A stretch of 62,447 nucleotides of DNA, filler included, from an uncultured Methanosarcinales archaeon (GCA_964434475.1; 3 parts of 3 records of this genome joined end to end with filler, not necessarily neighbours in it), one strand, 5' to 3'. Positions 1,719 through 28,903 are shown, counted from the whole stretch's first letter. Translations and numbers: made by a program. The notes: generated by a model from the sequence alone, not told the origin.

Positions 1719-4700
1719 ATGGTTTTGAAAGATTATTTGTCCAAAACAAAGAATATTCTTACAAGCGATGTGGGAGATTTAGCTAGTTCTATAAACAAAA
1801 AATTATCTGGAAATATGTTATATAGGTTAGCTTCTGGTGTGCCTTCTGTCGCTTACAGTGGATTGAAAAATAGCGCTAAGTTATGTACAAGGTCATCTGA
1901 ATATTTTGCTGGCAAAAATGGAGGAGAATCAGGATCTGAGATAGGCAAATATGTTTCGCTGCCGTCTGCTGCAGCATCTACTATACTTGGAGCAGCAGCT
2001 TTTGGTGCGCCTGGATTGATTATGGGTGCAATTTCAGCACCAGTTGTATCTGCAGGATCTGGTTATTGTTCCAGTTTGTTGGTTGAATCTCTTAAAGAGA
2101 CAAAAAACAAAGGTATTATTTCAGGTGCAAAGAAATTGGCTAAAGGAACTTTTGCTCCTATAAAATCTATACTTGATATTCCAGGAGATTCTTTCAATTA
2201 TCTTAATGGGATAGATATTTCTAAAGATAAGGAAACGTATGGAAACTTTACAGATGTTCTTAATTGTCTTTATTTTTTTATGGAAGACCTGAGAAATTAT
2301 GGAATTAATTCTGCTCCTGCTGTTAGAGAAGTTGTTTTTGAGAATGATGTCAATTTTGAAATGTATAATGATAAGCAGGTAAAATCCTTGGAAAAAATAG
2401 TCAAAAAAGTAAAAAAAGCAAAACAGAATATTCAGCAGGAATATGATGGTTGGAAAAAGGGTAATTTATCGGACGGTCTTTCTGGTTTTGAAAATTTTGC
2501 AAAGAATAAAACACAAGAATTTAAGGATAATGTAAGAGGCAACCTTTACTCTGTACTTGAAAAATATGTTGATGTTGAAGATAGTTTGTCTGATATGGAT
2601 AAATTATTTTTTGATGAATTAAATTCTGATGCTAGATATGATGTTATTAAGAAATTGTTCAAAAGACAATTTGATGATAACAGCAAAGAATACAAACAGT
2701 TTGTTAAGAAAAAAGATAATATTCTTGAACAAATACTTCCTGATGCTTATGCGCTTGTCCAGATGAGTGCTAAAGAAGCAATAGGTCTAGAGCATTATGA
2801 TGAACAGATTTTAGCAGGTATATCGCAAAATCAAGGTAAGATTATAAAGATGAGGACAGGGGAAGGCAAGACATTGACATCTGCTTTGCCTATATACCTT
2901 AATGCTTTAGCAGGCCAGTCACATTGGGTAACAAGGAACGAGTATGATTCTCAGAGGGATTTTGATAATTTTAGCAAATTATTTGATTATCTAGGATTAA
3001 GATCGTCTTTGAACAGAGAAGATATAGATAATAAAGAACGTAAAAGAATATTTGCAGACAGTGATGTTATATTCAGCGATATATCTTCTGTAGCTTTCAC
3101 TTATCTTAGGAATACTTTGGCTAAAGATATAACTGATATTGTGAATATGGATTTTAATTATGCTAATGTTGATGAGTTTGATCAAATAACCATAGACAAT
3201 GGTCTTACACCTTTTGTCATAGACAATGGAAATAAAAGCTTTATGTCTGATATGTCTGCTAAGATTGGAGAGATATGTCAATATTTATATGATACTGACA
3301 TGAAAAAAGGATATGCTAACACATTAGATTTTGATATAGTTGATTTTTTTGATAGGTATGGACCTCAAAATATGGTCGCTCAGACTTTGAGTTTGATAAA
3401 TCATGTTAAATTGAATCCTGAAAATTCTGAAATTGAAATGTATGTTGCAAATCTTTTAGGGCAATCAAAAAGAGATTTAAAATATTTTAATAAAGATGAT
3501 TATGCTCTAAATAAAAGCGTAAGGGAAGGCATAAACGAGCTTATACTTTTCTATTCTAAACACGCAGATGATCCTATAAGCAATCAGATAGTAAAACTGT
3601 TGGGCGATAATGGAACAGATTACAACCTAATAGATTTTGAGCATAATTTTAGTGAAACTGCTTTAGAAGATTTTATTGGTTTTTTCAATAAGAAAACTGA
3701 ATCAGAATTGTCTGTTAAAGATTACAATACTGACTTAAACCTGAAGAATGATCTTAATGTTTATTTTTTAGAAAACATTAAAGGTATTTTAGAAAATGTA
3801 TATAGCTTAGGAAAAAAAGACATACGATCTGTTATCGGAAATCTTGGTTTTGCCATGCAAGGTGGAGATTTTATCTCAGATAAAGCTAATAATTATGTTA
3901 TGTTGACTGAAATTGGTACAGATAAGATTCAGTCTTGTATAAATGAATTTTTCGAATCTGCTAACCTACCCAGCTTTATCCCTAAAGCCTATTTTTTACA
4001 GAAGATGGATCTTGCATTAAGAGTAAATGAACTGATGGAGGATACTTATGGAATAATAGAAGACAGTGAAGGGATTCCTAAGATAAGGATATATGATTCT
4101 GTTCAGGGAGAGTTTAAACACGACAACCAAAAATATTCAGAAGGTATGAACCAGGCTTTAGAAGCTAAAGTTTTTGGAAGAGTATTGAACAAAGAAACAG
4201 AACCTGCTACTAAGATTATGGTTCATTATTTGTTAGGATTATATGACAAGTTTTCAGGCCAGACAGGAACACCTTCAAATAAAGCGTCATATCAGATTTT
4301 TAATAAAGAAACTGTTGATGTTCCTACTCATTTTCCTGATATTAGAGTACATCATCCTGAGAAACTATATGCCACTAAAAATGAAAAGATAGATAATATA
4401 ATAGAGAAAGTCAAAGAGACTAATCTTGACAGTAATCCTTGTCTTATAATTTGTGAATCCGATAAATTATCTTTAGAAATTTACAATAGAATAAAAGATA
4501 TGGATGGTGTTGATAAGGATAAATTAAATCTATTTACTGACTTTAAAGCTCAAAATTCAGACGATCCTTATGGATATAAGAAGAATATTGTGAAAAAAGC
4601 AGGTATGGCTAAAGAGATTACCGTAGCAACAAATATGGGTGGAAGGGCTATAGATATACCTGTTGACAATAGTGCTTATGCTGACTCTGTAATAGACAAT

Positions 4701-6995
4701 ATAGTTAGACAGTCTATTGGCAGCTATAATGAAGGAACTTCTGTTTTTTTGAGAACAAGCGATTCTGTATTGGTTGATGAGAATAGGTGTACTGTAAAGA
4801 AAAAAGGCTTGGTGCAATACGACAATCTTATTTTTAATAAGTCTTCACAGAATTTAGAGACCAGTTTAACAGACGAAAATCTTGATTTTTTTGCGTCTTT
4901 TTTTAATGATCATGAAGAAAAAGGCAGAGGTTATATTATCGCAAAAAGATCAGGTCAGAAATTAGATGTTGAAACTCTGGATAAAGAGGAGCACAATTTT
5001 TTATTGGATAATATTTTATCAGCGATAAACTTATCCTGTAATAAGAAGGGTCTTGCTGTTATAGACTCTTATTCTGAGATTGATAACAGCGGAAGGATTG
5101 TAATATATGAAAAAGGACAGCCTTTAGAGTTTGTTGCGAATTCTAAAAAAGATATGAAAAAAGCAGAGAAGAAAATCAAGAGATTGGTAGGAAAGGAGAA
5201 TGTTATATCTTACTACAATCCTTATCTTACTAATGGATATGTTTATGCTTATCCTGATAGATGTAATGTGAATCTTCCTGTAATAGGTTCTAAAGACTGT
5301 ACTGATGTTTTAAATAGTATAAGCGGTAAGATGTTAAATGAAAACCTTGAATATTTCGATATATTGGAGTCATATAAGATATCCAATGATCTGAAGACAT
5401 CAGATTCAAGCACTTTTAGTAAAGACATAACACCTGGTTTGACAGTTATACATGGAGAAAAACAAAAATTTGAGCGTGCTGAACAGCAAGCTATCGGAAG
5501 GACTGGAAGACAAGGGCAACAGGGAAGCACATATTATTTTTCTTCTTTGGATGATTCTTTGTTGGATTTTATAAATAAGGACTCTTCTCAGAAAATATTA
5601 TCATGTCAAAAAGCTTTATCAGGTCATACTTATGGAAAAGAGTTGAACAAGGTTTTCTTTGGTCAGAGAAAAGGAGACAATTTTAATTATTTGGCTAATT
5701 TTAGAGAACAGATGGAGTCCAAGAATCTTGCAAATCTTATATCTGAAGTAAAGCTTGAAAATTATCTTGAAGGCGATAGGAAAAGGGTTTTTGAAATAAG
5801 AAATGATATACTTAGAAGTGATGATAAGGAATTAAGCGAAAGGATATCGGAAAATGCTGATCATTTTATAGATAGATTATATGGTTCTTTTGGAATATCT
5901 CATGATTCTAAACATAAGGATCTGTTGGATTTGGATGATTATCTTCAGAGTTATGGGGTTGATATAGATTTTAGTGATGCTCAAAGTATGAGGGATAATT
6001 TGAGATCTGCATTAGTGCCTTCTGAACAATCCAACCTGAAGCAGAGGGTGTTGAATATTATAGATTTTTATTGGAGAAATCATATGGGGAATATGAATCA
6101 AATAAAGCATCAAATATCTTCAGCAAAAGACTATGGGAAAACAAGTGCTCCTGTTTCAGGGTTGTTGTTTGATAGGATTGAAGATAAAGTCCTTGAGGAT
6201 TATTTCAAGATTGATCTGCCTAAATCTTATTTGGATAATTATGATAAAGCCTTGGCTAAAAAAGGACTTATCATGAATCACAAAAATATGGAAGAAAGAA
6301 ACATTTTAGAGAATATAGTTATGAACAGGATAAGAAGAAGATTTGCTAAAGATGATGCTTCTTTAGTGCAGGTAATGGTCGATAAGAAAAGTTTTGATAG
6401 AGAAGAGTATATGAGAGCTGATAAGGATTTTATAGGTGATGTTCTGGCTAATATGAACATATTTGATAAATCTAAATATTTTATCAATAAACTATCTTTG
6501 GGTATGTTGTTTCCTAGTTCAGGATTAGATGCTTTTGCTGATACTTATTATAATAAGAGGTTAAAGTTTATGAGGCTTCCTTTGAATAAAGAATCTGAAA
6601 AGGATGAATTGTTTGAGCAGATAGAAGCTGCTTATTATCCTAAAAAGATAGTAAGCGTCGATGAAATTATGTGTAGAGATAAAAAGTTTGCCGATAGTTT
6701 GTCTTTAAGAGATAAATTTAGCTTATTTGGTAATGGTGAAAGATCAAATAAGATAAGACAGGATTTTGTTGACAAAAGTCTGAGAAATAACAAGTATGTT
6801 CGGGAAGTGTTTAATATTGAAGACTGTGCTGATCATGTGCTTGAAACAAAAGGCATGAGATCTGAGCTTGAATTGTTTATGAAGTTGTTTGATAAAAATT
6901 CAGGTAAATTCACAGATGATGATCTGGATAAGTTCAAGATACTTCAGCCAGATGATATTGAACAGATAAAAAATGATCTTGTTTTTATCGGTTAG
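1719..6995 (+). CDS. secA: Divergent, enlarged SecA-family translocase ATPase (1758 aa)
   Basis: HYDEQ, MRTGEGKT (Walker A), VDEFDQITID (Walker B), YSEGMNQALEAK, SGQTGT, VATNMGGRAIDI, QAIGRTGRQG-YYFSSLDD, scaffold helix and IDFYWRNHM all in SecA order. Confidence 0.92.
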   Translation: MVLKDYLSKTKNILTSDVGDLASSINKKLSGNMLYRLASGVPSVAYSGLKNSAKLCTRSSEYFAGKNGGESGSEIGKYVSLPSAAASTILGAAAFGAPGLIMGAISAPVVSAGSGYCSSLLVESLKETKNKGIISGAKKLAKGTFAPIKSILDIPGDSFNYLNGIDISKDKETYGNFTDVLNCLYFFMEDLRNYGINSAPAVREVVFENDVNFEMYNDKQVKSLEKIVKKVKKAKQNIQQEYDGWKKGNLSDGLSGFENFAKNKTQEFKDNVRGNLYSVLEKYVDVEDSLSDMDKLFFDELNSDARYDVIKKLFKRQFDDNSKEYKQFVKKKDNILEQILPDAYALVQMSAKEAIGLEHYDEQILAGISQNQGKIIKMRTGEGKTLTSALPIYLNALAGQSHWVTRNEYDSQRDFDNFSKLFDYLGLRSSLNREDIDNKERKRIFADSDVIFSDISSVAFTYLRNTLAKDITDIVNMDFNYANVDEFDQITIDNGLTPFVIDNGNKSFMSDMSAKIGEICQYLYDTDMKKGYANTLDFDIVDFFDRYGPQNMVAQTLSLINHVKLNPENSEIEMYVANLLGQSKRDLKYFNKDDYALNKSVREGINELILFYSKHADDPISNQIVKLLGDNGTDYNLIDFEHNFSETALEDFIGFFNKKTESELSVKDYNTDLNLKNDLNVYFLENIKGILENVYSLGKKDIRSVIGNLGFAMQGGDFISDKANNYVMLTEIGTDKIQSCINEFFESANLPSFIPKAYFLQKMDLALRVNELMEDTYGIIEDSEGIPKIRIYDSVQGEFKHDNQKYSEGMNQALEAKVFGRVLNKETEPATKIMVHYLLGLYDKFSGQTGTPSNKASYQIFNKETVDVPTHFPDIRVHHPEKLYATKNEKIDNIIEKVKETNLDSNPCLIICESDKLSLEIYNRIKDMDGVDKDKLNLFTDFKAQNSDDPYGYKKNIVKKAGMAKEITVATNMGGRAIDIPVDNSAYADSVIDNIVRQSIGSYNEGTSVFLRTSDSVLVDENRCTVKKKGLVQYDNLIFNKSSQNLETSLTDENLDFFASFFNDHEEKGRGYIIAKRSGQKLDVETLDKEEHNFLLDNILSAINLSCNKKGLAVIDSYSEIDNSGRIVIYEKGQPLEFVANSKKDMKKAEKKIKRLVGKENVISYYNPYLTNGYVYAYPDRCNVNLPVIGSKDCTDVLNSISGKMLNENLEYFDILESYKISNDLKTSDSSTFSKDITPGLTVIHGEKQKFERAEQQAIGRTGRQGQQGSTYYFSSLDDSLLDFINKDSSQKILSCQKALSGHTYGKELNKVFFGQRKGDNFNYLANFREQMESKNLANLISEVKLENYLEGDRKRVFEIRNDILRSDDKELSERISENADHFIDRLYGSFGISHDSKHKDLLDLDDYLQSYGVDIDFSDAQSMRDNLRSALVPSEQSNLKQRVLNIIDFYWRNHMGNMNQIKHQISSAKDYGKTSAPVSGLLFDRIEDKVLEDYFKIDLPKSYLDNYDKALAKKGLIMNHKNMEERNILENIVMNRIRRRFAKDDASLVQVMVDKKSFDREEYMRADKDFIGDVLANMNIFDKSKYFINKLSLGMLFPSSGLDAFADTYYNKRLKFMRLPLNKESEKDELFEQIEAAYYPKKIVSVDEIMCRDKKFADSLSLRDKFSLFGNGERSNKIRQDFVDKSLRNNKYVREVFNIEDCADHVLETKGMRSELELFMKLFDKNSGKFTDDDLDKFKILQPDDIEQIKNDLVFIG

Positions 6996-7047
6996 ATGAG
7001 AAACAAGCACAACATATTCGTACATTGTCACTGTTAAGTAAGAAATT

Positions 7048-7063
7048 CAGTAACATTTAAATA
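7048..7063 (+). promoter_or_regulatory. Variant promoter CAGTAACATTTAAATA
   Basis: TATA box TTTAAATA preceded by CAGT rather than GAAA; same spacing at 9372, 12157, 37151. Confidence 0.7.
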
Positions 7064-7106
7064 TGTCTAACATTTGACAGATACAATACTATAATATTCA
7101 CGGAGG

Positions 7107-8165
7107 ATGATTTTAATGAATCAAATTGATGGCTTAGTAAGGGATACGCTAGATAGTGTTTTGGATGATGATAAGATTGCAGAATATCTTTCCAATAAAC
7201 TGCTTACACAGATAAATAAGACGCAAAATTCAGATAATGGTATAAAAAGCATACGTGATGGAACAAAGACTATCAAAAGATTTTATGATTCATTGAATGA
7301 AGATAAAAACAGCATATTGAATGATCCTAGAACTTTAAAGAACATATTAGGTGATAATGATTATTCTCCTTTAATACAGGAAAATGGCAGTAAACAAGAA
7401 TTTGCTGCAGGAGTTAAAGACTTCTTATTGAAATATATCAAATTTGCAAATATATCTTCTTCATTGGACGAAACTTTGGATTCTAAATATGAACAGATCG
7501 GTGCTTTGGATAAGGTTAATGAAAAGCAACCTATGAAAGCAGGCTGGCTTCTGTTTAAGAATTTTGGTCTTAAAGGTTTGACGAATAAAGAAGCTTATCT
7601 TAGAACAATAGCTGATGTGATGGAAACCAAAAATCTATCTTTAGAACAAGCAAAAGATGAGATTCCTAATTTAGTTTCTCAGATAGAAAAAAACAGTAGG
7701 AAATTAGATAACAAGGAGTATACTGCAGGAACACAATCTTATAGGATGAGAGAGATAGGAGAATGGTTTGATGCAAACAAAGTTGGTCTTGCAGCAGGAG
7801 TTGCAGCGCTTGCAATTGCAGCAGGAGGTATGTTTGCTATGCCTAAGTTATTTTACTCAGATAATGCCCATGATGCAAAAGCTTATGTCATAGAAGCTGA
7901 TGCTAAATTAAAAGAAGCTAATAATCTTCTTGAAAGTGCGGATGCAATGATCGCTGAGCAGAATAAGAAGCTAGAAACTGTTAAAAAAGAAGCTTCAAAG
8001 GTTGATCTTGCTGACAAATACCTGTCGCAATTTACTGGTATGCCTTATGCACCTGCTCATGATGAACTAGGAGAAGTAAGAACTAAGTTTGGTTTTAATT
8101 CTTCTGAATATAATGCAGCTGCAGAAGCTTTTGAAGATGCCTTTGGAATAAAACCTAATTTTTAA
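7107..8165 (+). CDS. Hypothetical membrane protein with one Gly/Ala-rich TM helix followed by coiled coil
   Basis: 352-aa ORF, SD GGAGG; VGLAAGVAALAIAAGGMFAM segment; heptad-like EADAKLKEANNLLESADAM. Confidence 0.8.
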   Translation: MILMNQIDGLVRDTLDSVLDDDKIAEYLSNKLLTQINKTQNSDNGIKSIRDGTKTIKRFYDSLNEDKNSILNDPRTLKNILGDNDYSPLIQENGSKQEFAAGVKDFLLKYIKFANISSSLDETLDSKYEQIGALDKVNEKQPMKAGWLLFKNFGLKGLTNKEAYLRTIADVMETKNLSLEQAKDEIPNLVSQIEKNSRKLDNKEYTAGTQSYRMREIGEWFDANKVGLAAGVAALAIAAGGMFAMPKLFYSDNAHDAKAYVIEADAKLKEANNLLESADAMIAEQNKKLETVKKEASKVDLADKYLSQFTGMPYAPAHDELGEVRTKFGFNSSEYNAAAEAFEDAFGIKPNF

Positions 8166-8176
8166 GGTGATCTGAT

Positions 8177-9361
8177 TTGTCTGGAAATAAAGAGGACAAT
8201 TTTTTATTTGATCCATTAGAGGAGAAAGTAACTAAGGAAGCTAAAAAGAAACGGTATCAAAACATAAAAAATGTTCTTAAATATTCTGCAGTAAGTTTTT
8301 TAGTAGGTGCTTCTCTTTGTTTCGGCTACCGTAATATGGATAATATCAAGTCTTTTTTGTCTGGTTCTGGAAAAGATGTTTTTGAGATAAAGAACAAGCA
8401 GCTGAAAAAAGTACGTAAACTTGAGCAGCTTTCTGAAAAAGATTTTAAGAAATATATTTCTCTCCATGAAAGATCCATAGATACTACTTTTTTCAGAGAT
8501 AATGATTTTATTGCAAAAGATAATAAATTAAGGGTTGTAGTAAATGCCGGCCATTTAGGAGGAAGATTTAGAGACGGAAGAAAATTTAATGAGGGTGCGG
8601 TTTATAAAGGTCTGGGGGAGACTGATTTAACTCCTGTTGCTGCGAAAATAATATGCCAGGAACTTGAAAAAAATTCTTCTTTCAAGCCTAAACTTATGAA
8701 ATCGCATGATTATAACACTCTTTTGAACTATGCTCCCTGGATATTAAATAGATTTAAGGTGACCTGGGGAGAGTCTTTGTATCCTGATGAGTATGATATA
8801 AACAGTCCTTATTTGTCTGATTTCTTAGATTGTATCGACGGAAATACGCGAAAAGCGAAATATAAGTCTGTAAGATCAGGAATTATATTTTCGCTTGGAA
8901 AAAAGGAAAGTAAAGGTCGAACTATTCAGAATAGTGCAGGCCATATATTTATTGAAACGCATTATGACTCTATGAATGGACGAAGATTCAAGGTTTATGT
9001 TCCAAGGGAATATGAGTGTGGAGATTATGGTTATGCAAGTTTCAAGAACAGGCAGCTCGAACTTTCAAAGAAACTGGCTTTGTATATTACAGAGGAAGCA
9101 TATAATCAAGGTATAGAAAGCGCTAAGCCAGGAGTTATAGGAAGGGATGATTCTATACAGATGATATTCAATCCTTTGCCTGTGTCTGTGTTGGTGGAAT
9201 ACGACAATATAGATGAAAGAAATTCAACAAATGCTGTATATATGACTAAAGTTGCTAAAGCAGTTAATATGGCTTTAGATAGGTTTGCCAGAGAAGAGTA
9301 TGATCAATTGATCAGGTACCCTGTGTCTGATAGCGGCTTGTTGGCAAGTAATCACTATTAA
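8177..9361 (+). CDS. Membrane-anchored N-acetylmuramoyl-L-alanine amidase (Amidase_3 family)
   Basis: TTG start with GGTGA SD; N-terminal TM; VVVNAGHLGG (His), LGETDL (Glu), IFIETHYDS (His), PVSVLVEYDNI (catalytic Glu). Confidence 0.85.
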   Translation: MSGNKEDNFLFDPLEEKVTKEAKKKRYQNIKNVLKYSAVSFLVGASLCFGYRNMDNIKSFLSGSGKDVFEIKNKQLKKVRKLEQLSEKDFKKYISLHERSIDTTFFRDNDFIAKDNKLRVVVNAGHLGGRFRDGRKFNEGAVYKGLGETDLTPVAAKIICQELEKNSSFKPKLMKSHDYNTLLNYAPWILNRFKVTWGESLYPDEYDINSPYLSDFLDCIDGNTRKAKYKSVRSGIIFSLGKKESKGRTIQNSAGHIFIETHYDSMNGRRFKVYVPREYECGDYGYASFKNRQLELSKKLALYITEEAYNQGIESAKPGVIGRDDSIQMIFNPLPVSVLVEYDNIDERNSTNAVYMTKVAKAVNMALDRFAREEYDQLIRYPVSDSGLLASNHY

Positions 9362-9371
9362 ATGACTAAAT

Positions 9372-9387
9372 CAGTTATATTTAAATA
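9372..9387 (+). promoter_or_regulatory. Variant promoter CAGTTATATTTAAATA
   Basis: About 20 nt upstream of ATG 9407; matches shared motif. Confidence 0.7.
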
Positions 9388-9406
9388 AGTCTAGAATTTA
9401 ACAAAG

Positions 9407-12061
9407 ATGGTAAAGATGGAATATTCAGCAGTAACAAAGACAGGAAACAGCAGCGCAGCAATAGACTTAGAATCTAGATTAAAGAAAGATACTGAGGAAA
9501 TAATTATTTTCAATACAACTTCTGAAAAACAAAAAAAATCTGAGAAAAAAAGAATTTCTGCAAAACTTGTACACAATCCTGAGAAAAGGGAGTTTTCTTT
9601 GCTAAATGATTGTCTGACAGAACATTATAATCAGAGATTTAAACCTTCTATAGTATGGAGTTTTACGAGTGGAAAAGGGGGTGTTGGAAAGACAACTATT
9701 GCAGGAGTTACTGCAAGAAGGCTTGCATTGGATAAAAATAATTATAAGGTTCTTCTTGTAGATGCAGATCATGGTGGACAGAATAATATACATCATCTCT
9801 TTGGAAAACAGAATAATGATAATAAAGCTATATTGAATATGGTTGAGAATGAAAGATATATGCTAAATAAGAAAAATTTAGTCAAGAGTGCTGTTTCAGA
9901 GTATCTTGATTCAGCTATTGATGTTCTATGGTCTTGTGGTCTTAAAGGTTTTAAAGAAATTTATAAGTCTTTTAATAAAGACGGAATCACTCTTGATGTA
10001 TCTATAGGTAATAAGGCAGGTGTTGATTTTTCTGATGATTACTCTGTTAGGAACGTTATAGGAAATATTATTTACGATAAGATGCCTGATTATTCAAAAG
10101 AGATAACTGGTGCAGTGATGGAATATGTAATCTATGATTTCAAAAGCAGGTCATCTGTTATAGAGAATTTTAAAGGTAAATCCAACTATAAGAAAATACT
10201 TAGCAGTATAGTTAAAAATATCCCCAAAGAACCTTTGATAAAGTCTATCTTAAGATCTGATGTTGTCTCTAAATTTATCGAAGATGTTAATGAAGAACTT
10301 GAGATTTCTTATTTTGGCCAGGATAATGTCCTTAAACAAATATGTGATAACTCAATAGTCAATGCAAAAGTATCTGAAGAAGAAAAAAAATGTCTTGGTC
10401 TTTTCAGTTCACAAAAAAATTATAATCTATCTTATGTAGATTTAGCAGGAAACGTGAAGATAGATGAAAAGAATTCCATGGGTTTAAGAAAAATTTCAAA
10501 AGTATTGAGCTATGCTTCCTCTAAATTAGGATACGACTTTGTAATAATAGATAATGGTGCAGGATCTAATAAACTTAATGATCTAAGTTCATTTTCTGAT
10601 GCCGCCATAGTCGTCGTAAATGATTCTGTGCCGTCAAAGGATGGTGCTGTAGCTGCATTGGAATCCATCTCTTTAAAAAATTATGAACTTACTATGCAGC
10701 AAGCTTTGGATGGTGGTTTTAATGCAAAACATGTCTTATACGGGATGCTTAATTCGTTGAACAAGAAAGACGAAGGAGAGGATCTTTGCGATCACGTTTT
10801 AAAAAAGATGAAGTCTTTGAAATCTGATCCTTATTTGTGCAGCATGGATTATTTAGGAAGTATAGAAGAATTGACCAAATCAAAAATAAATAAAATAACA
10901 CATAAGAACATACTTAAATCAATGACAAAAGTTTTGTCAAAAAGAGGTATGAAGGAAGATGATATTGTGCAGATATATAGGGGTTTAGGATATACTCCTT
11001 CAACTATAAAACACTCTATAGATAAATCTTTGTTAGGATATTATTTGGATGAAGTTTATACTAGTCTAAAGAAACAAGGTTTCAAAACATTAGGTATATT
11101 GACCTATCTTGCTTATGAGATGGATTTCAACCATAAAGATATTTTGAAGATAGATGATCTGAAAGAGATATCGCAAAAAGATCCTGAGGCTTTTAATGAT
11201 ATAATGGGAAAACTTTCAAAATTTTTCTATGTGCAGGATGAATCTGTAAACTATAAGACTATCATGAAAGAACTTGAAGAGCAAGGTTATCTGTTTCATG
11301 GAGATGATGTGATTAATGATAATTCCGATCTTCTAGCGAAAAGGCTTGAACTGGAATATTCTTCGATATCTCACTTTATGGGTGCTGTCAGAAAAGAAAA
11401 AAAGTCCATAGACGTGGCTTCAGATATAAAAAACATGATATCTTCCTGCGATATGTTAAGGGCTGGTGCAAAGTTAAATAGGGTTGCTGATTTTGAGTCT
11501 AAAGATAATTTAAGGAATTCTAGACAGAAAGAATTAGCTAAGAAATATCAAGAGCATTTAAATTATTATGGCATCTCAGAAAATCATCATAAATCTTTGC
11601 TTAATTATTTTTGCGGTGCAAAGATGTATTTTAATGAATTAACTTCCCATTTTGTAAAGGATAATCCTGATATATGTGATGCTTATGATGATGATATTTT
11701 CAGGACAAATAGGATCAAAATTATTGAAAAAATATCCTATAGAAATAATCTTCATACTTTTATGATATTGAACAGGAAAGATCCTAAAGAAAAAAAGTCT
11801 TGGCGAGATTATCGCGAGGAGTTAAACACTCTTGTGAAGAATAGATTGGGATTTGAGCCTAATGGGTTAGATTATGTTGTAGAGGATAAGGATACTTTCA
11901 ATAAAGCTAATTCATCCAATTGGTCAGAGATATTTTTAAAGAATGCAAAAGAAGGTCGATTGTCTAAGTCCATAGAGAATTGCGTAACAACTATACTTCC
12001 AAGTGCGAAAAAGAAATGGGCTTGGTTGAAATTTAGATATTTTGACAGGGTATGTTATTAA
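9407..12061 (+). CDS. MinD/FlhG/ParA-family P-loop ATPase with large insertions (884 aa)
   Basis: SGKGGVGKTT deviant Walker A; VLLVDAD; YDFVIIDNGAG; SDAAIVVV; late MILNR; basic-aromatic C-terminus. Confidence 0.88.
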   Translation: MVKMEYSAVTKTGNSSAAIDLESRLKKDTEEIIIFNTTSEKQKKSEKKRISAKLVHNPEKREFSLLNDCLTEHYNQRFKPSIVWSFTSGKGGVGKTTIAGVTARRLALDKNNYKVLLVDADHGGQNNIHHLFGKQNNDNKAILNMVENERYMLNKKNLVKSAVSEYLDSAIDVLWSCGLKGFKEIYKSFNKDGITLDVSIGNKAGVDFSDDYSVRNVIGNIIYDKMPDYSKEITGAVMEYVIYDFKSRSSVIENFKGKSNYKKILSSIVKNIPKEPLIKSILRSDVVSKFIEDVNEELEISYFGQDNVLKQICDNSIVNAKVSEEEKKCLGLFSSQKNYNLSYVDLAGNVKIDEKNSMGLRKISKVLSYASSKLGYDFVIIDNGAGSNKLNDLSSFSDAAIVVVNDSVPSKDGAVAALESISLKNYELTMQQALDGGFNAKHVLYGMLNSLNKKDEGEDLCDHVLKKMKSLKSDPYLCSMDYLGSIEELTKSKINKITHKNILKSMTKVLSKRGMKEDDIVQIYRGLGYTPSTIKHSIDKSLLGYYLDEVYTSLKKQGFKTLGILTYLAYEMDFNHKDILKIDDLKEISQKDPEAFNDIMGKLSKFFYVQDESVNYKTIMKELEEQGYLFHGDDVINDNSDLLAKRLELEYSSISHFMGAVRKEKKSIDVASDIKNMISSCDMLRAGAKLNRVADFESKDNLRNSRQKELAKKYQEHLNYYGISENHHKSLLNYFCGAKMYFNELTSHFVKDNPDICDAYDDDIFRTNRIKIIEKISYRNNLHTFMILNRKDPKEKKSWRDYREELNTLVKNRLGFEPNGLDYVVEDKDTFNKANSSNWSEIFLKNAKEGRLSKSIENCVTTILPSAKKKWAWLKFRYFDRVCY

Positions 12062-12104
12062 GACAATATGTGTTTTAAATCATATAAATTATTTTAAATA
12101 GCAA

Positions 12105-12120
12105 TGACAAATCTTTGTCA
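12105..12120. promoter_or_regulatory. Palindromic putative operator TGACAAA-TC-TTTGTCA
   Basis: Perfect 7-bp inverted repeat upstream of the variant promoter; CACTATTTAGT direct repeats nearby (about 12124 and 12200). Confidence 0.5.
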
Positions 12121-12156
12121 AAACACTATTTAGTTACTATTCATAAATGAAAAAAT

Positions 12157-12172
12157 CAGTAAGCTTTAAATA
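12157..12172 (+). promoter_or_regulatory. Variant promoter CAGTAAGCTTTAAATA
   Basis: Matches shared motif, about 105 nt upstream of ATG 12279. Confidence 0.65.
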
Positions 12173-12278
12173 TATTTGTCACTTTACAGGGTAGAAAAGC
12201 ACTATTTAGTGATGATTATTCATAATTCAAAGAGGGGAAACACGATAAATAGAAATAACACACGGAGGATGTTAAAAA

Positions 12279-14552
12279 ATGGTATGGGGTAATCCAATTT
12301 CAAAAGCTAACGAAGAAGTATTCAATCCTAATATAAGAACTGCGGGAGCAACCGCTGGAATGGCGACTCTTGGATATGGTCTTATGACTGTAGCTAAGAT
12401 GATGTCTCCAACAGATGCAAGTGCTGCAGAGAATAAAAAACTTATAGATATAGAAAAAACAGGAAAATATGACGCTCTAGTGGCTCAGACAAAAGCTTAT
12501 CTTAAAGGAGTAGGAGACACTAAATCACTTTCTCATATAGAGACTGGTTTTGACGGTTATAGACAAGATGATAATAAATCAACAGATTACGAATTTACAG
12601 ATTTCAGTATAGACGGCAACAATGTTTCATTTTATGATACTGAGATGCTTGGAAATGTGCCTGTTTCTTCTTTAGAGGTAAAAGCTAATAAAGAAATAGG
12701 AAGAAAATACATGGAATTCCTTAAAAGGGTTGTTGAGAAATCAAATGATCATAAATTAAGCAACTTTGAGCCTGATTATCATCTAGCAGCTAATGAGATG
12801 ACTCAAAAGGTGAGGGATCTTTATTCTGAAATTAAATCTCAACAAAGCGGAAGCAGAAATGTTAATGCTTTAGATGGAGAATATAAACAAACATTTGAGA
12901 TGATGAAAAAGTATGCTGGCATGGAAGGGTGGAGCGTAAAAGATATACAAAAACATTATGGTTTGAAACAAGACGGTTTAGCAGGGACTAAGACACTGAA
13001 CAGATTGAATCCTGACGCTAAAAAAGTATACAGTAATCTTAAAGCACAAAAACCTTCTGTAAAAAAATCAAGTATGAAGTCAGTCAAAATATCAAGAAAT
13101 CCTGCTTCAAATCTTGAAGCTAAGGTTGAAAGCAGCGGTTTTGATGAACAATTGACTTTTGATGAACAATTGACAGAAGACGTAGGTTATACTTACAGAA
13201 CAATAAAAAGCCAGAAAAGCGGAAGCAAGAATGTAGAATCTTTGCCTCATGACTCTACAGTTGAATCTACTTATAATAAATTGGTTGACTTGGCTGGATT
13301 CAATGGAAAAGATACAAAAGAGATCCAAAAAGAGTTAGGATTGAAATCAGACGGTTTAGCAGGAGTAAAGACATTGAATAGATTAGTTAAGATGGCTAAG
13401 GCTAATTCTAACTACTCAAGTAATGATAATACTTTGGAGAAAACAATGTCTAATGCAGATGTTGAAAATATCGCTCAATCTGCGATGAGTTCAACAAGCC
13501 CTTTTATCGAGGATGTTAGGGATCTGTACGATGCTTTGGAAAAACAGCCAAAAGGAAGCAGACATATAGATGCTTTGGCAAAGAGTGTAAGCACAGAACA
13601 AGGAGCAAAATATCTTGCAACTTTTTGGAAGATGACAGATTTTGCTCAAGAAGGAGGATTACAGTTCAATAAGCAGGAGGATAATCCTAAATTATCATAT
13701 GAAAACCTTCAGAAAGCTTTAGGTGCTCATGTTGACGGTAAACCTGGATTGGGAACATTGAATAAGTTAAATCCATTGGCTAAGCCTGTTTATACAAGCA
13801 TGCCTAAGTCTGAGTTCAAAGAATCATATGTTTCTAATGAAGCTCAGAACGCTCAAGATAAGGTTATCAAACAGCTAGAGAAGGATCTTGGAACAAAGAT
13901 CGCTGGTGAGGATAATAATGTTCAGAAAACAGACACACAGAAAGCAGCTGAAAAGGCTATGGATAAGATAGATGAAGCAAAAGAAAACAGAAGAGATGCT
14001 TATATGGACAGAGAATTACAAAATACTAGTCTAGATAGCGCTGTCTCAAGATTAAATGATCTTAATGTTGAAGGATTAAAGCCTAGTGTTGATGAAACCG
14101 GAAACTTCACTTTCCAAAGGAAAAGAGGAAGCATTGAAGGTTCAATTACAACAAGCGGAGATAAATATGTAGTATCTATGCAGGGCGGAATCAAGGATGG
14201 CGAATTCAACGGTAAATACAGTTCATTGGATAATGCTATGAATTCAATCGAAGAAGCTGTACTTAACAGAACATCAGCAAGTGCTCTTGATAGTATGGGC
14301 GGTGCTGGAAAAGCTGTTGGAGTTGTCGGCGGAATCGCTTTGCTGGCTGCTTTACTTGGCGGCGGCAGTGGCGGCAGTTCAGGCGGAGGCTCAAGTGCAA
14401 CATCTGCACATGATTCATCCAACACTTTTGAGAACGACATTGCAGGATTCTCTATGAAAAACCAAAGCAATCCTGAAGTTGATCAGTTCGATAAAGACAG
14501 CAATGATGTTAACAAGAATATCAATTATTTCCTAAATATGAGGAATGCATAA
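12279..14552 (+). CDS. Exported/membrane protein with three peptidoglycan-binding (PG_binding_1-like) repeats and a Gly-rich hydrophobic C-terminal segment
   Basis: IQKHYGLKQDGLAGTKTLNRL, IQKELGLKSDGLAGVKTLNRL, LQKALGAHVDGKPGLGTLNKL; N-terminal hydrophobic stretch; VGVVGGIALLAALLGGGSGG. Confidence 0.75.
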   Translation: MVWGNPISKANEEVFNPNIRTAGATAGMATLGYGLMTVAKMMSPTDASAAENKKLIDIEKTGKYDALVAQTKAYLKGVGDTKSLSHIETGFDGYRQDDNKSTDYEFTDFSIDGNNVSFYDTEMLGNVPVSSLEVKANKEIGRKYMEFLKRVVEKSNDHKLSNFEPDYHLAANEMTQKVRDLYSEIKSQQSGSRNVNALDGEYKQTFEMMKKYAGMEGWSVKDIQKHYGLKQDGLAGTKTLNRLNPDAKKVYSNLKAQKPSVKKSSMKSVKISRNPASNLEAKVESSGFDEQLTFDEQLTEDVGYTYRTIKSQKSGSKNVESLPHDSTVESTYNKLVDLAGFNGKDTKEIQKELGLKSDGLAGVKTLNRLVKMAKANSNYSSNDNTLEKTMSNADVENIAQSAMSSTSPFIEDVRDLYDALEKQPKGSRHIDALAKSVSTEQGAKYLATFWKMTDFAQEGGLQFNKQEDNPKLSYENLQKALGAHVDGKPGLGTLNKLNPLAKPVYTSMPKSEFKESYVSNEAQNAQDKVIKQLEKDLGTKIAGEDNNVQKTDTQKAAEKAMDKIDEAKENRRDAYMDRELQNTSLDSAVSRLNDLNVEGLKPSVDETGNFTFQRKRGSIEGSITTSGDKYVVSMQGGIKDGEFNGKYSSLDNAMNSIEEAVLNRTSASALDSMGGAGKAVGVVGGIALLAALLGGGSGGSSGGGSSATSAHDSSNTFENDIAGFSMKNQSNPEVDQFDKDSNDVNKNINYFLNMRNA
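13139..13174 (+). repeat. 18-bp tandem duplication (FDEQLT x2)
   Basis: TTTTGATGAACAATTGAC twice in tandem, in frame. Confidence 0.85.
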
Positions 14553-22819: not shown

Positions 22820-22919
22820 NNNNNNNNNNNNNNNNNNNNNNNNNNNNNNNNNNNNNNNNNNNNTTAATTAATTAANNNNNNNNNNNNNNNNNNNNNNNNN
22901 NNNNNNNNNNNNNNNNNNN
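22820..22919. other. Assembly gap with TTAATTAATTAA linker
   Basis: 44 N + 12-mer with stops in all frames + 44 N. Confidence 0.97.
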
Positions 22920-23060
22920 GTGTTCAACTACCTAATTTTTTCGGTTTTTAGAAAAATCTGCACAACTCCAGTAAGGTAATTAATAATACGAATATTTTAG
23001 CTTCAGGAGACAGCGCAAATTAAAAATTTGCTGGCCATCCTTTGCTCAGGTGATAATAAA

Positions 23061-23663
23061 ATGAAGATACTCGCTTCAGGAGACATACACGGAGATACTA
23101 GCTTAGCAGAGAAATTAGCTAAGAAAGCAGAAGACAATAAGGTAGATCTTGTTGTATTATGTGGAGATCTAACGTATGCTGAAGCATCAACTAAAAACCT
23201 AATAGGGCCTTTTGCAAAAAGAAATCAAAAAGTTGTTCTTATTCCAGGCAATCATGAGACTGTTGCAACAGCAGACTTTTTGGCTGAGCTTTATGGAGCC
23301 ACTAACTTGCACGGATATTCTATAAAAGCAGGAGAGATTGGCTTGTTTGGCGCAGGCGGCGCTAATGTTGGACTGCATCAGTTTTCAGAAGATGAATTCT
23401 ATGAACTATTACAAAAAGGACATAACTATATCAAAGATATGAAGAAAAGAATTATGGTAACACATGTGCATCCTACAGGCACAAAGATGGAAAAATTCAC
23501 AAGCTTTTTTCCAGGCTCAACAGGAGTTAAAAAAGCGATAGATGCTTTTAAGCCGGATATCTTGCTTTGCTCTCATGTTCACGAAGCAGAAGGGATCGAA
23601 GAGAGATTAGGAAACACAAAAGTCATAAATGTAGGTAAAGAAGGAAAAATCTTAGACATCTAA
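23061..23663 (+). CDS. Calcineurin-like metallophosphoesterase
   Basis: DIHG, GDL, GNHE, THVHP, SHVHE motifs; SD AGGTGA before ATG 23061. Confidence 0.9.
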   Translation: MKILASGDIHGDTSLAEKLAKKAEDNKVDLVVLCGDLTYAEASTKNLIGPFAKRNQKVVLIPGNHETVATADFLAELYGATNLHGYSIKAGEIGLFGAGGANVGLHQFSEDEFYELLQKGHNYIKDMKKRIMVTHVHPTGTKMEKFTSFFPGSTGVKKAIDAFKPDILLCSHVHEAEGIEERLGNTKVINVGKEGKILDI

Positions 23664-24155
23664 TTTTTTTATAATTATCTTGAACCAAGGAGTATATATT
23701 TCAGGATTTTGCTTTATGTCTTGTTTAAGTTCTTCTATGCTTATCCACCTGTAATCTTCTATTTCATCTTTGTTAATATTCGGATCTTGGTCATATATTC
23801 CTTTGAAAACATAGTCTAACTCATTTTCAGTCAAACCATTGTCGAATTCTGCAGTATAATGAAAATAGAAAAGTTTGTCGAGTTTAGTATCAAAACCCAT
23901 CTCTTCTTTTAATCTCCTATGAGCTGCATCTTCTGTTATTTCTCCTTGTCTTGGATGACTGCAGCATGCATTTGTCCATAATCCTGGGCAATGGTACTTG
24001 TGCTTTGCCCTTTGATGGATAAGCATATTATTGTTCTTGTTAAATATTAATATAGAAAAAGCTCTATGGCATAGGGCTTTTTCATGTGCTTTCATCTTTT
24101 CTTCTGTACCTATAGGGGTATCGTTTTCATCAACAAGAATAACATTCTCATTCAT
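23652..24155 (-). CDS. idi: Type 1 isopentenyl-diphosphate delta-isomerase
   Basis: KMKAH, HRAFSILIFN, WTNACCSHP, RRLKEEMG, ENELDYVF, YTPWF. Confidence 0.93.
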   Translation of the reverse strand: MNENVILVDENDTPIGTEEKMKAHEKALCHRAFSILIFNKNNNMLIHQRAKHKYHCPGLWTNACCSHPRQGEITEDAAHRRLKEEMGFDTKLDKLFYFHYTAEFDNGLTENELDYVFKGIYDQDPNINKDEIEDYRWISIEELKQDIKQNPEIYTPWFKIIIKKLDV

Positions 24156-25576
24156 CCTTTGACCACTCCTAATGGTTTTAATCTTGCAACAATGTTTCCT
24201 ATGCCTGCATCGTGGCTTACTTTGATGACTTCATCTATATCCTTATAGACTTGAGGAGCTTCTTCTGCAATACCTTTCCATGAAGCGCTCTTTACATAAA
24301 TATTCTGTTTTTTTAATTCTTCCCTTATATCGTCTGCTTTAAACTGTCTTGCAGCATGCCTAGACATCAATCTTCCAGCACCATGTGCTGTAGAGCCAAA
24401 AGTCTGTTTCATAGCTTCTTCTGTTCCTACAAGAACATATGAAGAAGTACCCATACTTCCTGGAATCAATACAGGCTGACCTGTTTGTCTGTATTTTTCA
24501 GGCAAATCAGGATGATGAGGAGGAAATGATCTTGTCGCGCCTTTTCTATGAAGATAAACTTTCTTTTTTTTGCCATCTATCTCATGCTCCTCTACTTTTG
24601 CGATATTATGTGCAACATCGTAGACTGGATTTATTTCAGTATTTTCGCCAAATATCTCTTTAAAGCTTTGTCTTACTTCATGCGCTATTATCAATCTATT
24701 TACCCAAGCATAATTTGCAGCAGCACACATAGCTTTGTAGTAATCTTTTGCAAGTTTTGATTTTGCAGGAGCATATATCAAGTCTCTTTCAGGCAGAGAA
24801 TCCGCTATTTCAGGATTTTCGTCTTCCATCCTTCTCAGATAGTCTGAACAAACTTGATGGCCTAATCCTCTGCTTCCACAATGTATCATTATCATTATCT
24901 GATTCTTTTTTGTTATACCAAAGGTTTCAGCTGTTTTTTTATCAATAATTTCATCAACATACTGTATCTCTAAAAAATGGTTACCAGCGCCCAATGTACC
25001 AAGCTGTTTTCTTCCTCTTGATTTCGCTTTTTGGCTTACCTTGGTTGAATCAGCTGCATCCATACAACCGCCTTCTTCAGATAATTCAGCATCTTCCTCT
25101 ATACCATAGCCATTCTCTAATGCCCATCTGCTTCCGTTTTTCAATACATCATCTAATTGTTCATCTGTTAATCTTATCTTGGATTCTGAACCTACTCCGC
25201 CAGGAACATTCTTGAACAAAGAGATAAGTATGTTTCTTATCTTTGGCTCTACTTCTTCTTTGGTTAGATTTGTTGACAATAGTCTTACTCCGCAGTTTAT
25301 GTCAAAACCAATTCCGCCAGGAGTTATTAAGCCATCTTCAATATCAAAAGCTGCCACACCGCCTATGCTGAACCCATATCCTTGGTGAGCATCAGGACAC
25401 ATGATGCTTGCTTTCTGTATTCCAGGTAATTTAGAAACATTTATTCCCTGCTGTATTGCTTTATCTTTTTTCATGTCTTCCAATAGTTTTTCACTTGCGA
25501 AAATCTTTACAGGAACATTCATATTGCCTTCTTTCTCAACTTCAAATAAATAATTGTTTATCTTTTTTAGTTTCAT
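24152..25576 (-). CDS. rtcB: RNA-splicing ligase RtcB
   Basis: PDAHQGYG, GFDINCG, GTLGAGNHFLE, HCGSRG, HN, HRKGAT, PGSMG, HGAGR, EEAP-YK. Confidence 0.97.
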   Translation of the reverse strand: MKLKKINNYLFEVEKEGNMNVPVKIFASEKLLEDMKKDKAIQQGINVSKLPGIQKASIMCPDAHQGYGFSIGGVAAFDIEDGLITPGGIGFDINCGVRLLSTNLTKEEVEPKIRNILISLFKNVPGGVGSESKIRLTDEQLDDVLKNGSRWALENGYGIEEDAELSEEGGCMDAADSTKVSQKAKSRGRKQLGTLGAGNHFLEIQYVDEIIDKKTAETFGITKKNQIMIMIHCGSRGLGHQVCSDYLRRMEDENPEIADSLPERDLIYAPAKSKLAKDYYKAMCAAANYAWVNRLIIAHEVRQSFKEIFGENTEINPVYDVAHNIAKVEEHEIDGKKKKVYLHRKGATRSFPPHHPDLPEKYRQTGQPVLIPGSMGTSSYVLVGTEEAMKQTFGSTAHGAGRLMSRHAARQFKADDIREELKKQNIYVKSASWKGIAEEAPQVYKDIDEVIKVSHDAGIGNIVARLKPLGVVKG

Positions 25577-25965
25577 ACATCTACCACCACAATAATATGA
25601 TCATCAGTTATCTCCATATCTGAATAGGTTATGGATTTTATGTTGCCTTTAACATTATAATTTTTGTAATTGTCACCTTTAGCTATTGCTTTTAGCTTAT
25701 TGTCTTCTATGTTTACTTTTATGCTGGACAAGATAAATCCGTCTGTATCCAGCTTGAACAATAGCTCTTCAAGAAAATCATAGAGCAAGGATTTTGTTTT
25801 TTTTGATTCTATATTTATTTCTAAGGTTTTTAGTTGTTTTACTTTGCTTATATCTGTAAGTACGTTAAACATAGCTAATGCCGTGTTCTCAAATTTCTTT
25901 GATAATGTTTCGCCATAAGCTTTTATCTTTACGTCAGCAGTATGCTCTAGGTATTCGTATTGCAT
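25573..25965 (-). CDS. Archease
   Basis: YEYLEHTADV, IKSITY, terminal VVVDV; overlaps rtcB start. Confidence 0.93.
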   Translation of the reverse strand: MQYEYLEHTADVKIKAYGETLSKKFENTALAMFNVLTDISKVKQLKTLEINIESKKTKSLLYDFLEELLFKLDTDGFILSSIKVNIEDNKLKAIAKGDNYKNYNVKGNIKSITYSDMEITDDHIIVVVDV

Positions 25966-25997
25966 AATCAAAGAAGTTAATAGCATCATATATAAAA

Positions 25998-26225
25998 TTA
26001 ATCCAAAAATATAAGGCCTTGAGATTCTTCTTTTTGTTCTTCAGGTTCTGTTTTTTGAGGTTGTTCTGTAGAATTGAACATATTGAACATATCTGTAGGT
26101 TGAGAATTGTTTTCAAATATGTTAGAATTTGACTTGTGTTCGTGGTTTGTCAGATTTCTCAATAACTCGATAGCTTTGATTATATCTTCCTTAGAATCAT
26201 GTTGTGTGTCTATTGTGATTTTCAT
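25998..26225 (-). CDS. Small hypothetical protein
   Basis: 75-aa ORF, MKITIDT...DIIKAIELL N-terminal domain with low-complexity tail. Confidence 0.7.
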   Translation of the reverse strand: MKITIDTQHDSKEDIIKAIELLRNLTNHEHKSNSNIFENNSQPTDMFNMFNSTEQPQKTEPEEQKEESQGLIFLD

Positions 26226-26250
26226 AAGATATTGTTTGATATTTGTATAT

Positions 26251-26901
26251 TTATACTTTTCTATTCAGGCCTTTTGCTTTTATGTAAGAATTGACTATAT
26301 CTCCAAACTCCTTTGCTCTTTCTATGGATATTTTTGCCTTGTTCATCTCAGCACTTATCGTCATCCTATAGGTGAATTCATGCCTTTTTTGCCTTTCAAT
26401 ATCCATATACTCAATAATATTCTTTGCTTTTTGCTGGGTTAGCTGTTGCATTTGTTCTTTTGCATCAGATAATAAAGACAATGCTTTTGACAATTTAGAG
26501 TATTTTATGTCGCTCCATTCTAAATTATGTTTATTCTCCATATCAGAACCTTTGATTATGAAGTAATACATCAAAGCCAACTCAACAGTCTTATGGGTAT
26601 CTTGAACATCTTTGGGTATTTTTTTATTGTCAAGAGCCAGCAGATATTGGGCTAGAAAAAATATCCTGTAATAAGATGCGTTTATTATCCACAATGTGCC
26701 ATCATAATCGTCTGCATCAAAAAAATCTCTTGTTTCCTGATTTTCCATTATGCTCATGATATATTGAGCTGTTCTTAATGCATTCCTTGATTATTCTAGA
26801 GTATGATGCTTGAATATGTCAGAAGGAGTTTGCCATATATGATCATTATCCCATCTCTTAAATGTGTTTATGGCTCGCTTAATATCCTCTTTTCTTATCA
26901 T
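26251..26901 (-). pseudogene. HEPN-like toxin gene interrupted by an in-frame TAA at 26791-26793
   Basis: ATG 26901 overlaps MNT end and is in frame with the 168-aa ORF; reads ...HHTLE*SRNALRTAQYIMSIM...; SYYRIF and RQKRHEFTY HEPN-like motifs. Confidence 0.7.
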
Positions 26902-27490: not shown

Positions 27491-27496
27491 ATTTAC

Positions 27497-27510
27497 CGAT
27501 AACGTTATCG
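27497..27510. promoter_or_regulatory. Perfect 14-bp palindrome, putative autoregulatory operator
   Basis: CGATAACGTTATCG between TATA box and start codon of the MNT gene. Confidence 0.6.
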
Positions 27511-27650
27511 TAATTTAAGATATATTTAAAAGTATCGGTTTTCAATTAGGCAATTTGTTTTTAATCTTAAGACCTTGATATTTTAGTAATTTAGGCTTAC
27601 AATAAGAAGATAAAAAAAGATTTGTCCTTAATAATTCTTTTTGGTGCTTC

Positions 27651-27923: not shown

Positions 27924-28139
27924 TGTTTTACCACCCTTTATTTATGTAATAAATTATATATTAACCTTGGTTTAAATACTTTTCTATATATGAGGCTATG
28001 TGTTTTGTTGTCTTTAATAAGTGGTTAAATAGCGCTAGATTTATAAATATAAATAAGTTAGGAAGTATATGAAGAAGGGAATTTCTATTATTTTGACAAA
28101 TTGACAAATTTAATATACAACAACCATTAACCAAAAAAA

Positions 28140-28862: not shown

Positions 28863-28884
28863 AATGGAAAGATTTATAAACATC

Positions 28885-28902: not shown

Positions 28903-28903
28903 A

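Follow-up and report, generated by a model that had tools for sequence, protein, structure and literature searches.

A highly divergent Amidase_3-fold protein encoded in a surface locus of an archaeon without detectable murein synthesis

What would a protein with the fold of a bacterial murein amidase do in an archaeon with no detectable murein synthesis? The question is raised by an open reading frame (ORF) at positions 8177-9361 of the window, i.e., the whole stretch of 62,447 nucleotides analysed here, from the genome of an uncultured archaeon (GCA_964434475.1). The ORF encodes a protein of 394 amino acids (aa), which we call P0001. Three contigs make up the window, with spacers of N between them. 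Contig C1 (87,274 bp) contributes its first part (C1:1-22819) at positions 1-22819, C2 its first part (C2:1-7603) at 22920-30522, and C10 its whole length at 30623-62447. The stretches of N lie at 22820-22919, 30523-30622, and 42857-42956, the last one being a 100-N gap within C10. ORFs that seem to cross 22819 or 30522, where contigs are joined, are artefacts. The context of the locus was judged on C1, also beyond the end of the window. Taken as a whole, the best explanation, which we hold to be somewhat more probable than all others together, is that P0001 is a membrane-anchored, outward-facing zinc amidase that opens the walls of neighbouring bacteria and acts within a surface locus. The gene starts with a TTG codon, has a Shine-Dalgarno-like motif (GGTGA) about 6 nt upstream, and is separated by 11 nt from the end of the upstream gene. 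Its features are the following.

8177..9361, plus strand: P0001, divergent Amidase_3-fold protein of 394 aa (ORF call, hhalign, structure model and fold matches)
8273..8329, plus strand: residues 33-51, moderately hydrophobic, putative signal-anchor preceded by a stretch rich in Lys and Arg (Kyte-Doolittle hydropathy, K/R counts)
8330..8524, plus strand: residues 52-116, Lys-rich linker predicted to be helical (composition; helices in a first, low-confidence model)
8525..9301, plus strand: residues ~117-375, Amidase_3-fold catalytic domain with H126, E148, H262, and E341 (alignment A4, see below; VIA Z 20.5 to AmiB 8c0j)
8720..8932, plus strand: residues ~182-252, insertion particular to this family, located after the second zinc ligand and before the third (spacing; predicted local distance difference test, pLDDT, below 50)

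P0001 is an Amidase_3-fold protein, as shown by remote methods only. An exhaustive phmmer search of 1.84 billion representative proteins identified a single relative, P0002 (370 aa, E 1.1e-05, 31% identity over residues 225-374). It has the same build as P0001, with an N-terminal hydrophobic segment followed by the motifs NAGH, EGAV, FIExHYD, and L(V/I)E. The Pfam profile of Amidase_3 (PF01520) matches P0002 with an E-value of 0.0033 and 17.9 bits over positions 69-171 of 174; this is below the gathering score of 27 bits, which P0001 does not reach either. We then compared the alignment of P0001 and P0002 (A1) with a second one (A2), made from 13 bona fide Amidase_3 proteins of the host's order, taken from the 20 loci returned. 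The match by hhalign is strong in the C-terminal half (residues 253-371 of P0001, Prob 96.5%, E 9.4e-10), where H262 is aligned with the His of the 'SxH' motif of the family and E341 with the Glu of its 'LxE' motif. The N-terminal half by itself gives a weak match (Prob 49%, E 1.7e-4), which nevertheless runs collinear with the strong one; its register pairs NAGH with DPGH and E148 with the invariant Glu. A protein-language-model atlas ranks three Amidase_3 clusters on top (0.89, with 163-164 shared features), which we take as a lead only. The independent evidence for the fold consists of the hhalign result, the Pfam match of P0002, and the residue pattern.

Other searches for relatives were empty. 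The PDB sequence searches with P0001 alone and with the two-row profile gave chance-level matches only, and a k-mer-seeded search of 5.8 billion proteins returned P0001 itself, or P0001 and P0002, and nothing else. The A1 profile had no match in the 200 other genomes of the order, two of which belong to the same genus, and none in the collections of viral contigs and genome contigs. None was found by tblastn of P0001 against phage records. We found no published description of this subfamily in the literature on Woesearchaeota amidases or on DPANN pilin/amidase. The family is nearly an orphan, and its extreme divergence is among its novel points.

To place the catalytic residues, we used a domain alignment of 26 rows (A4), which comprises P0001, P0002, and the 24 of the 34 Amidase_3 ORFs of the order whose match covers at least 175 positions of the hidden Markov model (HMM). 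E148 and E341 are invariant in it (26/26), as is R225. The column of H126 has a His in 22 of the 26 rows and that of H262 in 23. The predicted zinc ligands, His126-Glu148-His262, therefore stand at the canonical positions of Amidase_3, and E341, near the C-terminal strand, is the candidate general-base Glu. The second and third ligands are unusually far apart: the E148-H262 spacing is 114 in P0001 and 108 in P0002, versus 42-98 (median 55) in the other 24 rows. The H262-E341 spacing (79) is ordinary, since that of other members of the order is 59-115. The first-pass annotation of this DNA had proposed an Amidase_3 ORF at 8177-9361 with retained His/Glu/His ligands and catalytic Glu, and with an insertion between the second and third ligands. 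The ORF is real, its fold is that of Amidase_3 by remote methods, the four residues sit in the ligand and catalytic columns of A4, and the spacing bears out the insertion.

The structure model built by AlphaFold2 with A4 as input has a mean pLDDT of 70.3 and a predicted template modelling score of 0.74, with 88 residues at pLDDT >= 90. The insertion (residues ~182-252) is exactly what the model fails to place, with pLDDT below 50 in the model segments 75-101, 105-138, and 141-145. Foldseek found 33 PDB matches at E<=0.001 for this model, led by AmiB, CwlD, AmiA, and Rv3717, with E-values down to 1.2e-07. The 24 best PDB entries of VIA-align (Z 14.6-20.5) are all of the Amidase_3 type; their titles name 19 of them as N-acetylmuramoyl-L-alanine amidases and the other 5 as endolysin or cell-wall proteins. 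The best one, AmiB (8c0j), has a Z of 20.5 and a root-mean-square deviation (rmsd) of 2.5 A over 180 residues. The next structural class, that of metallo-carboxypeptidases, reaches a Z of 11.1 at most.

The host is clearly an archaeon. Its assembly (1.50 Mb, 148 contigs, 32.9% GC, 96.95% complete) has a full-length small subunit ribosomal RNA whose best model of the Rfam clan is the archaeal one (1412.7 bits). C1 carries AglB/STT3, an aIF5B-type IF-2, aRF1, prefoldin, aIF5A, and HerA. Since these are archaeal genes, P0001 is encoded on archaeal DNA, and we rejected bacterial contamination. The order comprises well over 100 families, with genomes of 0.6-2.7 Mb, sizes that follow the pattern of a DPANN-type lineage. 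We found no match to FtsW/RodA in the genome (97% complete) and none to the transpeptidase of penicillin-binding proteins, two families that are each positive in 10 of the 14 controls. The one match to Mur_ligase_M is not diagnostic, because this family is also positive in the archaeal controls Methanocaldococcus and Haloferax. These results agree with the first-pass annotation, which had seen a murein amidase in an organism without murein as an oddity. The host is as it described, but the surprise was overstated. PF01520 is found in 37 of the 201 genomes of the order at E<=1e-3, and in 35 over the cut-off (the 201 include an unpublished genome, G112, and the host genome, which has none), and archaeal murein hydrolases have already been published. 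Murein hydrolases of small-genome archaea are a known kind, which is common in the order. The novelty here is how far the sequence has diverged, together with its insertion, its pairing with a MinD/ParA-like gene, and the unusual locus.

If P0001 acts on murein, where would it be placed? Residues 33-51 have a Kyte-Doolittle hydropathy of 1.95 over 13 residues and of 1.37 over 19, values that are hydropathy maxima and not the output of a topology predictor. There are 6 Lys or Arg in the 15 residues before the segment versus 2 after it, and the linker that follows has 12 Lys in 66 residues (53-118). The hydrophobic segment of P0002 is stronger (2.02), and its flanking Lys and Arg are tied, at about 5 on each side by an eye count. 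The N-terminal transmembrane (TM) helix that had been annotated is thus in part supported: there is a hydrophobic segment with a Lys/Arg-rich stretch before it, but its hydrophobicity is only modest. A strong N-terminal hydrophobic segment precedes the domain in 23 of the 34 Amidase_3 ORFs of the order. Hence, membrane tethering is the rule in the order and is not peculiar to P0001. On the anchor alone, the contact-dependent rather than diffusible action proposed in the first-pass annotation is plausible, though it was overstated.

Several observations weigh against a membrane-anchored murein amidase. No curated HMM recognises P0001: the Pfam scan at E<=10 gives a chance match to SecA_PP_bind and no Amidase_3, the scans of NCBIfam, PHROGs, and PADLOC give no match, and the six-frame scan of the whole host genome with PF01520, which is positive in 8 of the 14 control genomes, gives none. 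Its assignment to the family accordingly depends on remote methods. Even the HMM built from A2 misses both P0001 and P0002 at E<=1, so that the link is visible at the profile-profile level only, and since the family has two members its internal conservation statistics are thin. The fold match is partly built in and not independent, because A4 is dominated by true Amidase_3 rows; a first model, made from a two-row alignment, was uninformative and unusable (pLDDT 37.6). Poly-gamma-glutamate hydrolases and carboxypeptidases, which act on other amides, share the fold at Z 10-11. At the active site, the residue after the catalytic Glu is a Gly in 24 of the 26 rows of A4 and an Asp in P0001, and the unmodelled insertion of 55-60 residues may block or retarget the site. 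Finally, with 1.37 over 19 residues, the hydrophobic segment looks weak for a TM helix.

The neighbourhood of the gene bears on its role. Every gene between 1719 and 22100 is on the plus strand, with short gaps. P0001 is the third gene of the series, preceded by a SecA-like gene and a gene of 352 aa, and followed by genes of 884 and 757 aa and then by PKD-repeat and S-layer-like surface proteins. Its close neighbours are the following.

1719..6995, plus strand: SecA-like ATPase of 1758 aa, with large inserts and an N-terminus extended by 300 aa (Pfam SecA_DEAD 3.4e-52, P-loop_SecA, SecA_SW, SecA_PP_bind)
7107..8165, plus strand: protein of 352 aa with one TM segment (~228-244) and no family match in Pfam or PHROGs
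9407..12061, plus strand: MinD/ParA-type P-loop ATPase of 884 aa with an orphan C-terminal half (Pfam CbiA 1.8e-13; PDB MinD 1e-09)
12279..14552, plus strand: protein of 757 aa with three PG_binding_1-type repeats (motifs at 228, 354, and 482) and a C-terminal TM segment at 679-695 (Pfam PG_binding_1 1.6e-09)

The protein of 757 aa, two genes downstream of P0001, is the only PG_binding_1 match of the genome. It also has SleB-like stretches and matches PHROG endolysin families at 6e-07 and 7e-06. By their sequence, these repeats next but one to P0001 point to murein as the probable target of the locus. The SecA-like ATPase has intact motor motifs (GEGKT at 381, DEFD at 485, TNMGGR at 971, and GRTGRQG at 1260), and its N-terminal extension holds a hydrophobic segment rich in Gly and Ala. 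SecA_DEAD is over the cut-off in 6 genomes out of the 201 of the order, with the host genome and the unpublished G112 counted in, and the other SecA-like loci, on contigs that are short, show no similar neighbourhood. The 352-aa gene is probably co-transcribed with that of P0001. The 884-aa protein was not found in the 200 other genomes of the order, and our searches with the whole protein and with its C-terminal half gave no relatives; the atlas neighbours of this half, at 0.85, are uninformative. A similar gene pair is seen with P0002, whose contig (L003, 1,675 bp) carries the amidase-like gene and then a MinD/ParA-like gene, as in the host. This second gene shares 47% identity with the 884-aa protein across residues 83-155, a stretch that covers Walker A and contains the DADHG motif. 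The pair of amidase and MinD/ParA-like genes is conserved between the two loci.

The comparison with another genome of the genus (G032) shows that the flanks of the locus are conserved, at 29-58% identity. The genes kept there encode a permease, a PKD protein, an S-layer-like protein, a 746-aa protein, a FAD protein, two EamA proteins, and AglB. Between them, at G032:C2:77687-85315 (L069), four genes (1075, 326, 801, and 270 aa) replace the five genes at 1719-14552 of the window. They have no detectable sequence similarity to these five and no Pfam match. By eye only, a P-loop (GKGSSGKT) can be made out early in the 801-aa protein, one TM segment around residue 215 of the 326-aa protein, and another, followed by a Gly/Ser tail, in the 270-aa protein, so that any likeness to the window genes is an impression. 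Since the flanks are kept and the genes in the slot have no detectable similarity, the surface locus looks conserved except for a hypervariable slot between the permease and the PKD and S-layer-like genes. The murein-related modules in this slot are species-specific.

Two other natures of the block were considered and rejected. Against a phage or mobile element, the matches of the SecA-like protein in the phage collection are 29-34% identical, with two annotated SecA in host-like records, and the GC content of the five-gene block is 0.31-0.37, versus 0.329 in the genome. Against a defence island, there is only a single weak PADLOC match, on the P-loop. A scan for sigma-70 promoters gave 76 sites where 77 are expected; its model is bacterial and the host archaeal. 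Elsewhere on C1, outside the window, we observed an ORF of 5,092 aa (C1:52107-67385) and a bacterial-type prolipoprotein diacylglyceryl transferase, Lgt (C1:85939-86697, Pfam 2.6e-56). The remainder of the window encodes a SelD selenophosphate synthetase (32810-33925, plus strand; TIGR00476, 1.7e-107) and an RtcB ligase (24152-25576, minus strand), whose top NCBIfam match is the intein-containing RtcB model, covered only in part.

We propose the following mechanism for an anchored amidase acting on bacterial walls. P0001 would be a zinc-dependent enzyme of the N-acetylmuramoyl-L-alanine amidase type, held at the archaeal membrane by an uncleaved N-terminal signal-anchor (N-in, C-out). Given this orientation and the Lys-rich linker of about 65 residues, the catalytic domain would face outward. 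His126, Glu148, and His262 would bind zinc, and Glu341 would act as the general base, so that the stem peptide is cut from N-acetylmuramic acid. Murein is not made by the archaeon itself, and so the walls of neighbouring bacteria are the likely substrate of the enzyme. The locus would be the species-specific version of a hypervariable surface locus, in which the 757-aa membrane protein supplies three murein-binding repeats, the MinD/ParA-like ATPase possibly serves for positioning, and export may be the task of the SecA-like ATPase. All this would serve to open the wall locally, or to harvest muropeptides, at the site of contact with a bacterial host or prey. Of this picture, the analysis shows the fold, the residue conservation, the archaeal host, the lack of matches to murein-synthesis families, and the neighbourhood; topology, substrate, activity, contact dependence, and the roles of the two ATPases are inferred.

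A lysin with the same fold and chemistry could instead be released and diffuse to bacterial walls, either because the hydrophobic segment is a signal peptide that is cleaved or because it is exported by the SecA-like ATPase. The segment of P0001 is indeed short and only moderately hydrophobic, the N-terminus of P0002, with its short Lys-rich n-region and an h-region of 18 residues, resembles an ordinary signal peptide, and signal peptides are found in 32% of the archaeal modular peptidoglycan hydrolases, according to Strock et al. 2025 (PMC12352652). Yet no small-x-small cleavage motif common to P0001 and P0002 is seen in A1, and the partner protein with the PG_binding_1 repeats is itself membrane-anchored. 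Moreover, 32 residues precede the segment in P0001, a stretch longer than is usual in signal peptides. We regard a released lysin as unlikely, if the least so of the alternatives.

The scaffold may also have been retargeted to an amide outside murein, such as the archaeon's own envelope glycans, S-layer anchors, or another polymer of the mat. The extreme divergence (one relative among 1.84 billion representatives), the change of the conserved Gly to Asp, the large insertion near the site, and the fold relatives that act on other amides would all suit this possibility, as would the S-layer-like and PKD surface proteins that flank the locus and the AglB and glycosyltransferases downstream. Against it, all four catalytic and ligand residues are kept and the only PG_binding_1 protein of the genome is two genes away. 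In addition, G032 keeps the surface genes without amidase or PG-binding repeats, so that the amidase is not needed for the genus's own envelope. This makes retargeting improbable to us.

A more ambitious version of the anchored amidase takes the whole five-gene block (1719-14552) as an apparatus dedicated to engaging the murein of a bacterial partner or prey. A membrane-tethered SecA-type motor would export its components, the giant MinD/ParA-like ATPase would place them at the contact site, the PG_binding_1 protein would grip the wall, and the anchored amidase would open it. SecA-type motors are, to our knowledge, otherwise foreign to archaea. With its slot being hypervariable, such cassettes would then be host-specific and differ from one species of the genus to another. 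We consider such an integrated apparatus doubtful.

How does P0001 compare with known amidases? LytH of S. aureus (7tj4; Z 18.5, rmsd 2.0 A over 153 residues) and CwlD of C. difficile (7rag; Z 18.1, rmsd 3.1 A over 182 residues) are similar in their Amidase_3 domain. Both have a single N-terminal membrane anchor, both act on the wall of their producer, and they need a partner, ActH for LytH and GerS for CwlD. In contrast, the producer of P0001 lacks murein, and P0001 has the extra 55-60 residues between its ligands. AmiA, AmiB, and AmiC (8c2o, 8c0j, 3ne8, 4bin) are the best structural matches (Z 18.7-20.5, Foldseek E 1.2e-07). These enzymes are periplasmic, soluble, and autoinhibited by a helix between the third ligand and the catalytic Glu, whereas in P0001 this His-to-Glu spacing is ordinary (79) and the extra piece precedes the third ligand. 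That P0001 is catalytically dead and serves as a murein-binding adhesin, or is active only once a partner such as the 352-aa or the 757-aa protein rearranges the insertion, seems very unlikely to us. In its favour, the close matches LytH-ActH and CwlD-GerS were solved as complexes, the length of the unmodelled insertion is kept in P0002, and the distance to the upstream gene, which encodes a membrane protein, suggests that the two are tightly coupled in an operon. Against it, the general-base Glu is retained, and no homologue of ActH or GerS was seen, although none was looked for.

The other Amidase_3 proteins of the order resemble P0001 in their fold, the four key residues, a length of ~320-370 aa, a mostly present N-terminal hydrophobic segment, and the same kind of host. 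They differ in being recognised by PF01520, in their Glu-to-His spacing of 42-98 instead of 114, and, for many of them, in a pilin-like 'KKRG + hydrophobic' N-terminus in a setting of small pilin-like genes, with no ParA-like neighbour. Many of these proteins (L014:1000-2049, L018:1036-2034, L016:1480-2589 on the minus strand, L015, L019, L020, and L022) have a start of the 'MKKRG' type and a hydrophobic stretch that contains a Glu. The ORFs around them are small and have similar N-termini, and Pfam sees only Amidase_3 there. By eye, they look like fusions of a pilin-like part with a murein amidase in pilus-type clusters. In three further ORFs (L024:1540-2490 on the minus strand, L063:795-1760, and L059:430-2022), positions ~137-190 of the Amidase_3 profile match upstream of positions ~5-114, which suggests a circular permutation or tandem partial domains.

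Archaeal enzymes of this kind have been catalogued before. Among 3,706 archaeal genomes, Strock et al. 2025 (PMC12352652) report 175 with modular peptidoglycan hydrolases, prominently in Nanoarchaeota, as well as two haloarchaeal enzymes that kill a bacterium. These hydrolases share with P0001 a murein-cleaving domain in an archaeon free of murein, a patchy distribution, and a proposed antibacterial role. To be included in that screen, a single protein had to combine a catalytic with a wall-binding domain, both recognised by Pfam, and P0001 is therefore outside the catalogue by construction. It has no Pfam domain of either sort, and the wall-binding repeats are on a separate neighbour, the 757-aa protein. 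Vigneron et al. 2022 (PMC9723730) proposed predatory, 'vampiristic' Woesearchaeota from GH23 transglycosylases and pore-forming toxins; the word 'amidase' is absent from its main text. Here too small-genome archaea are proposed to attack bacterial murein, but through the glycosidic instead of the amide bond and with a different fold. The host of P0001 also has an ORF with an SLT (lytic transglycosylase) domain (C8:12261-12575, L047, in an ORF of 484 aa), a candidate for a second murein-directed enzyme. For the SecA-like neighbour, bacterial accessory SecA2 pathways, which serve S-layer proteins and selected substrates (PMC3297441), offer a mere analogy.

Archaeal enzymes against bacterial walls have been catalogued only recently, through modular proteins detectable by Pfam. 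P0001 shows that such a catalogue misses members that are too divergent for curated HMMs, or whose wall-binding part is on a separate protein. The SecA-like motor bears on the question of what, if anything, powers post-translational export in archaea; since SecA_DEAD is over the cut-off in so few genomes of the order, it is a rare acquisition and not a general answer. P0001 and its locus fit the published idea of such archaea attacking or feeding on bacteria. If P0001 is indeed an anchored amidase, it would give a concrete and testable handle on the physical contact between a small-genome archaeon and its bacterial partner.

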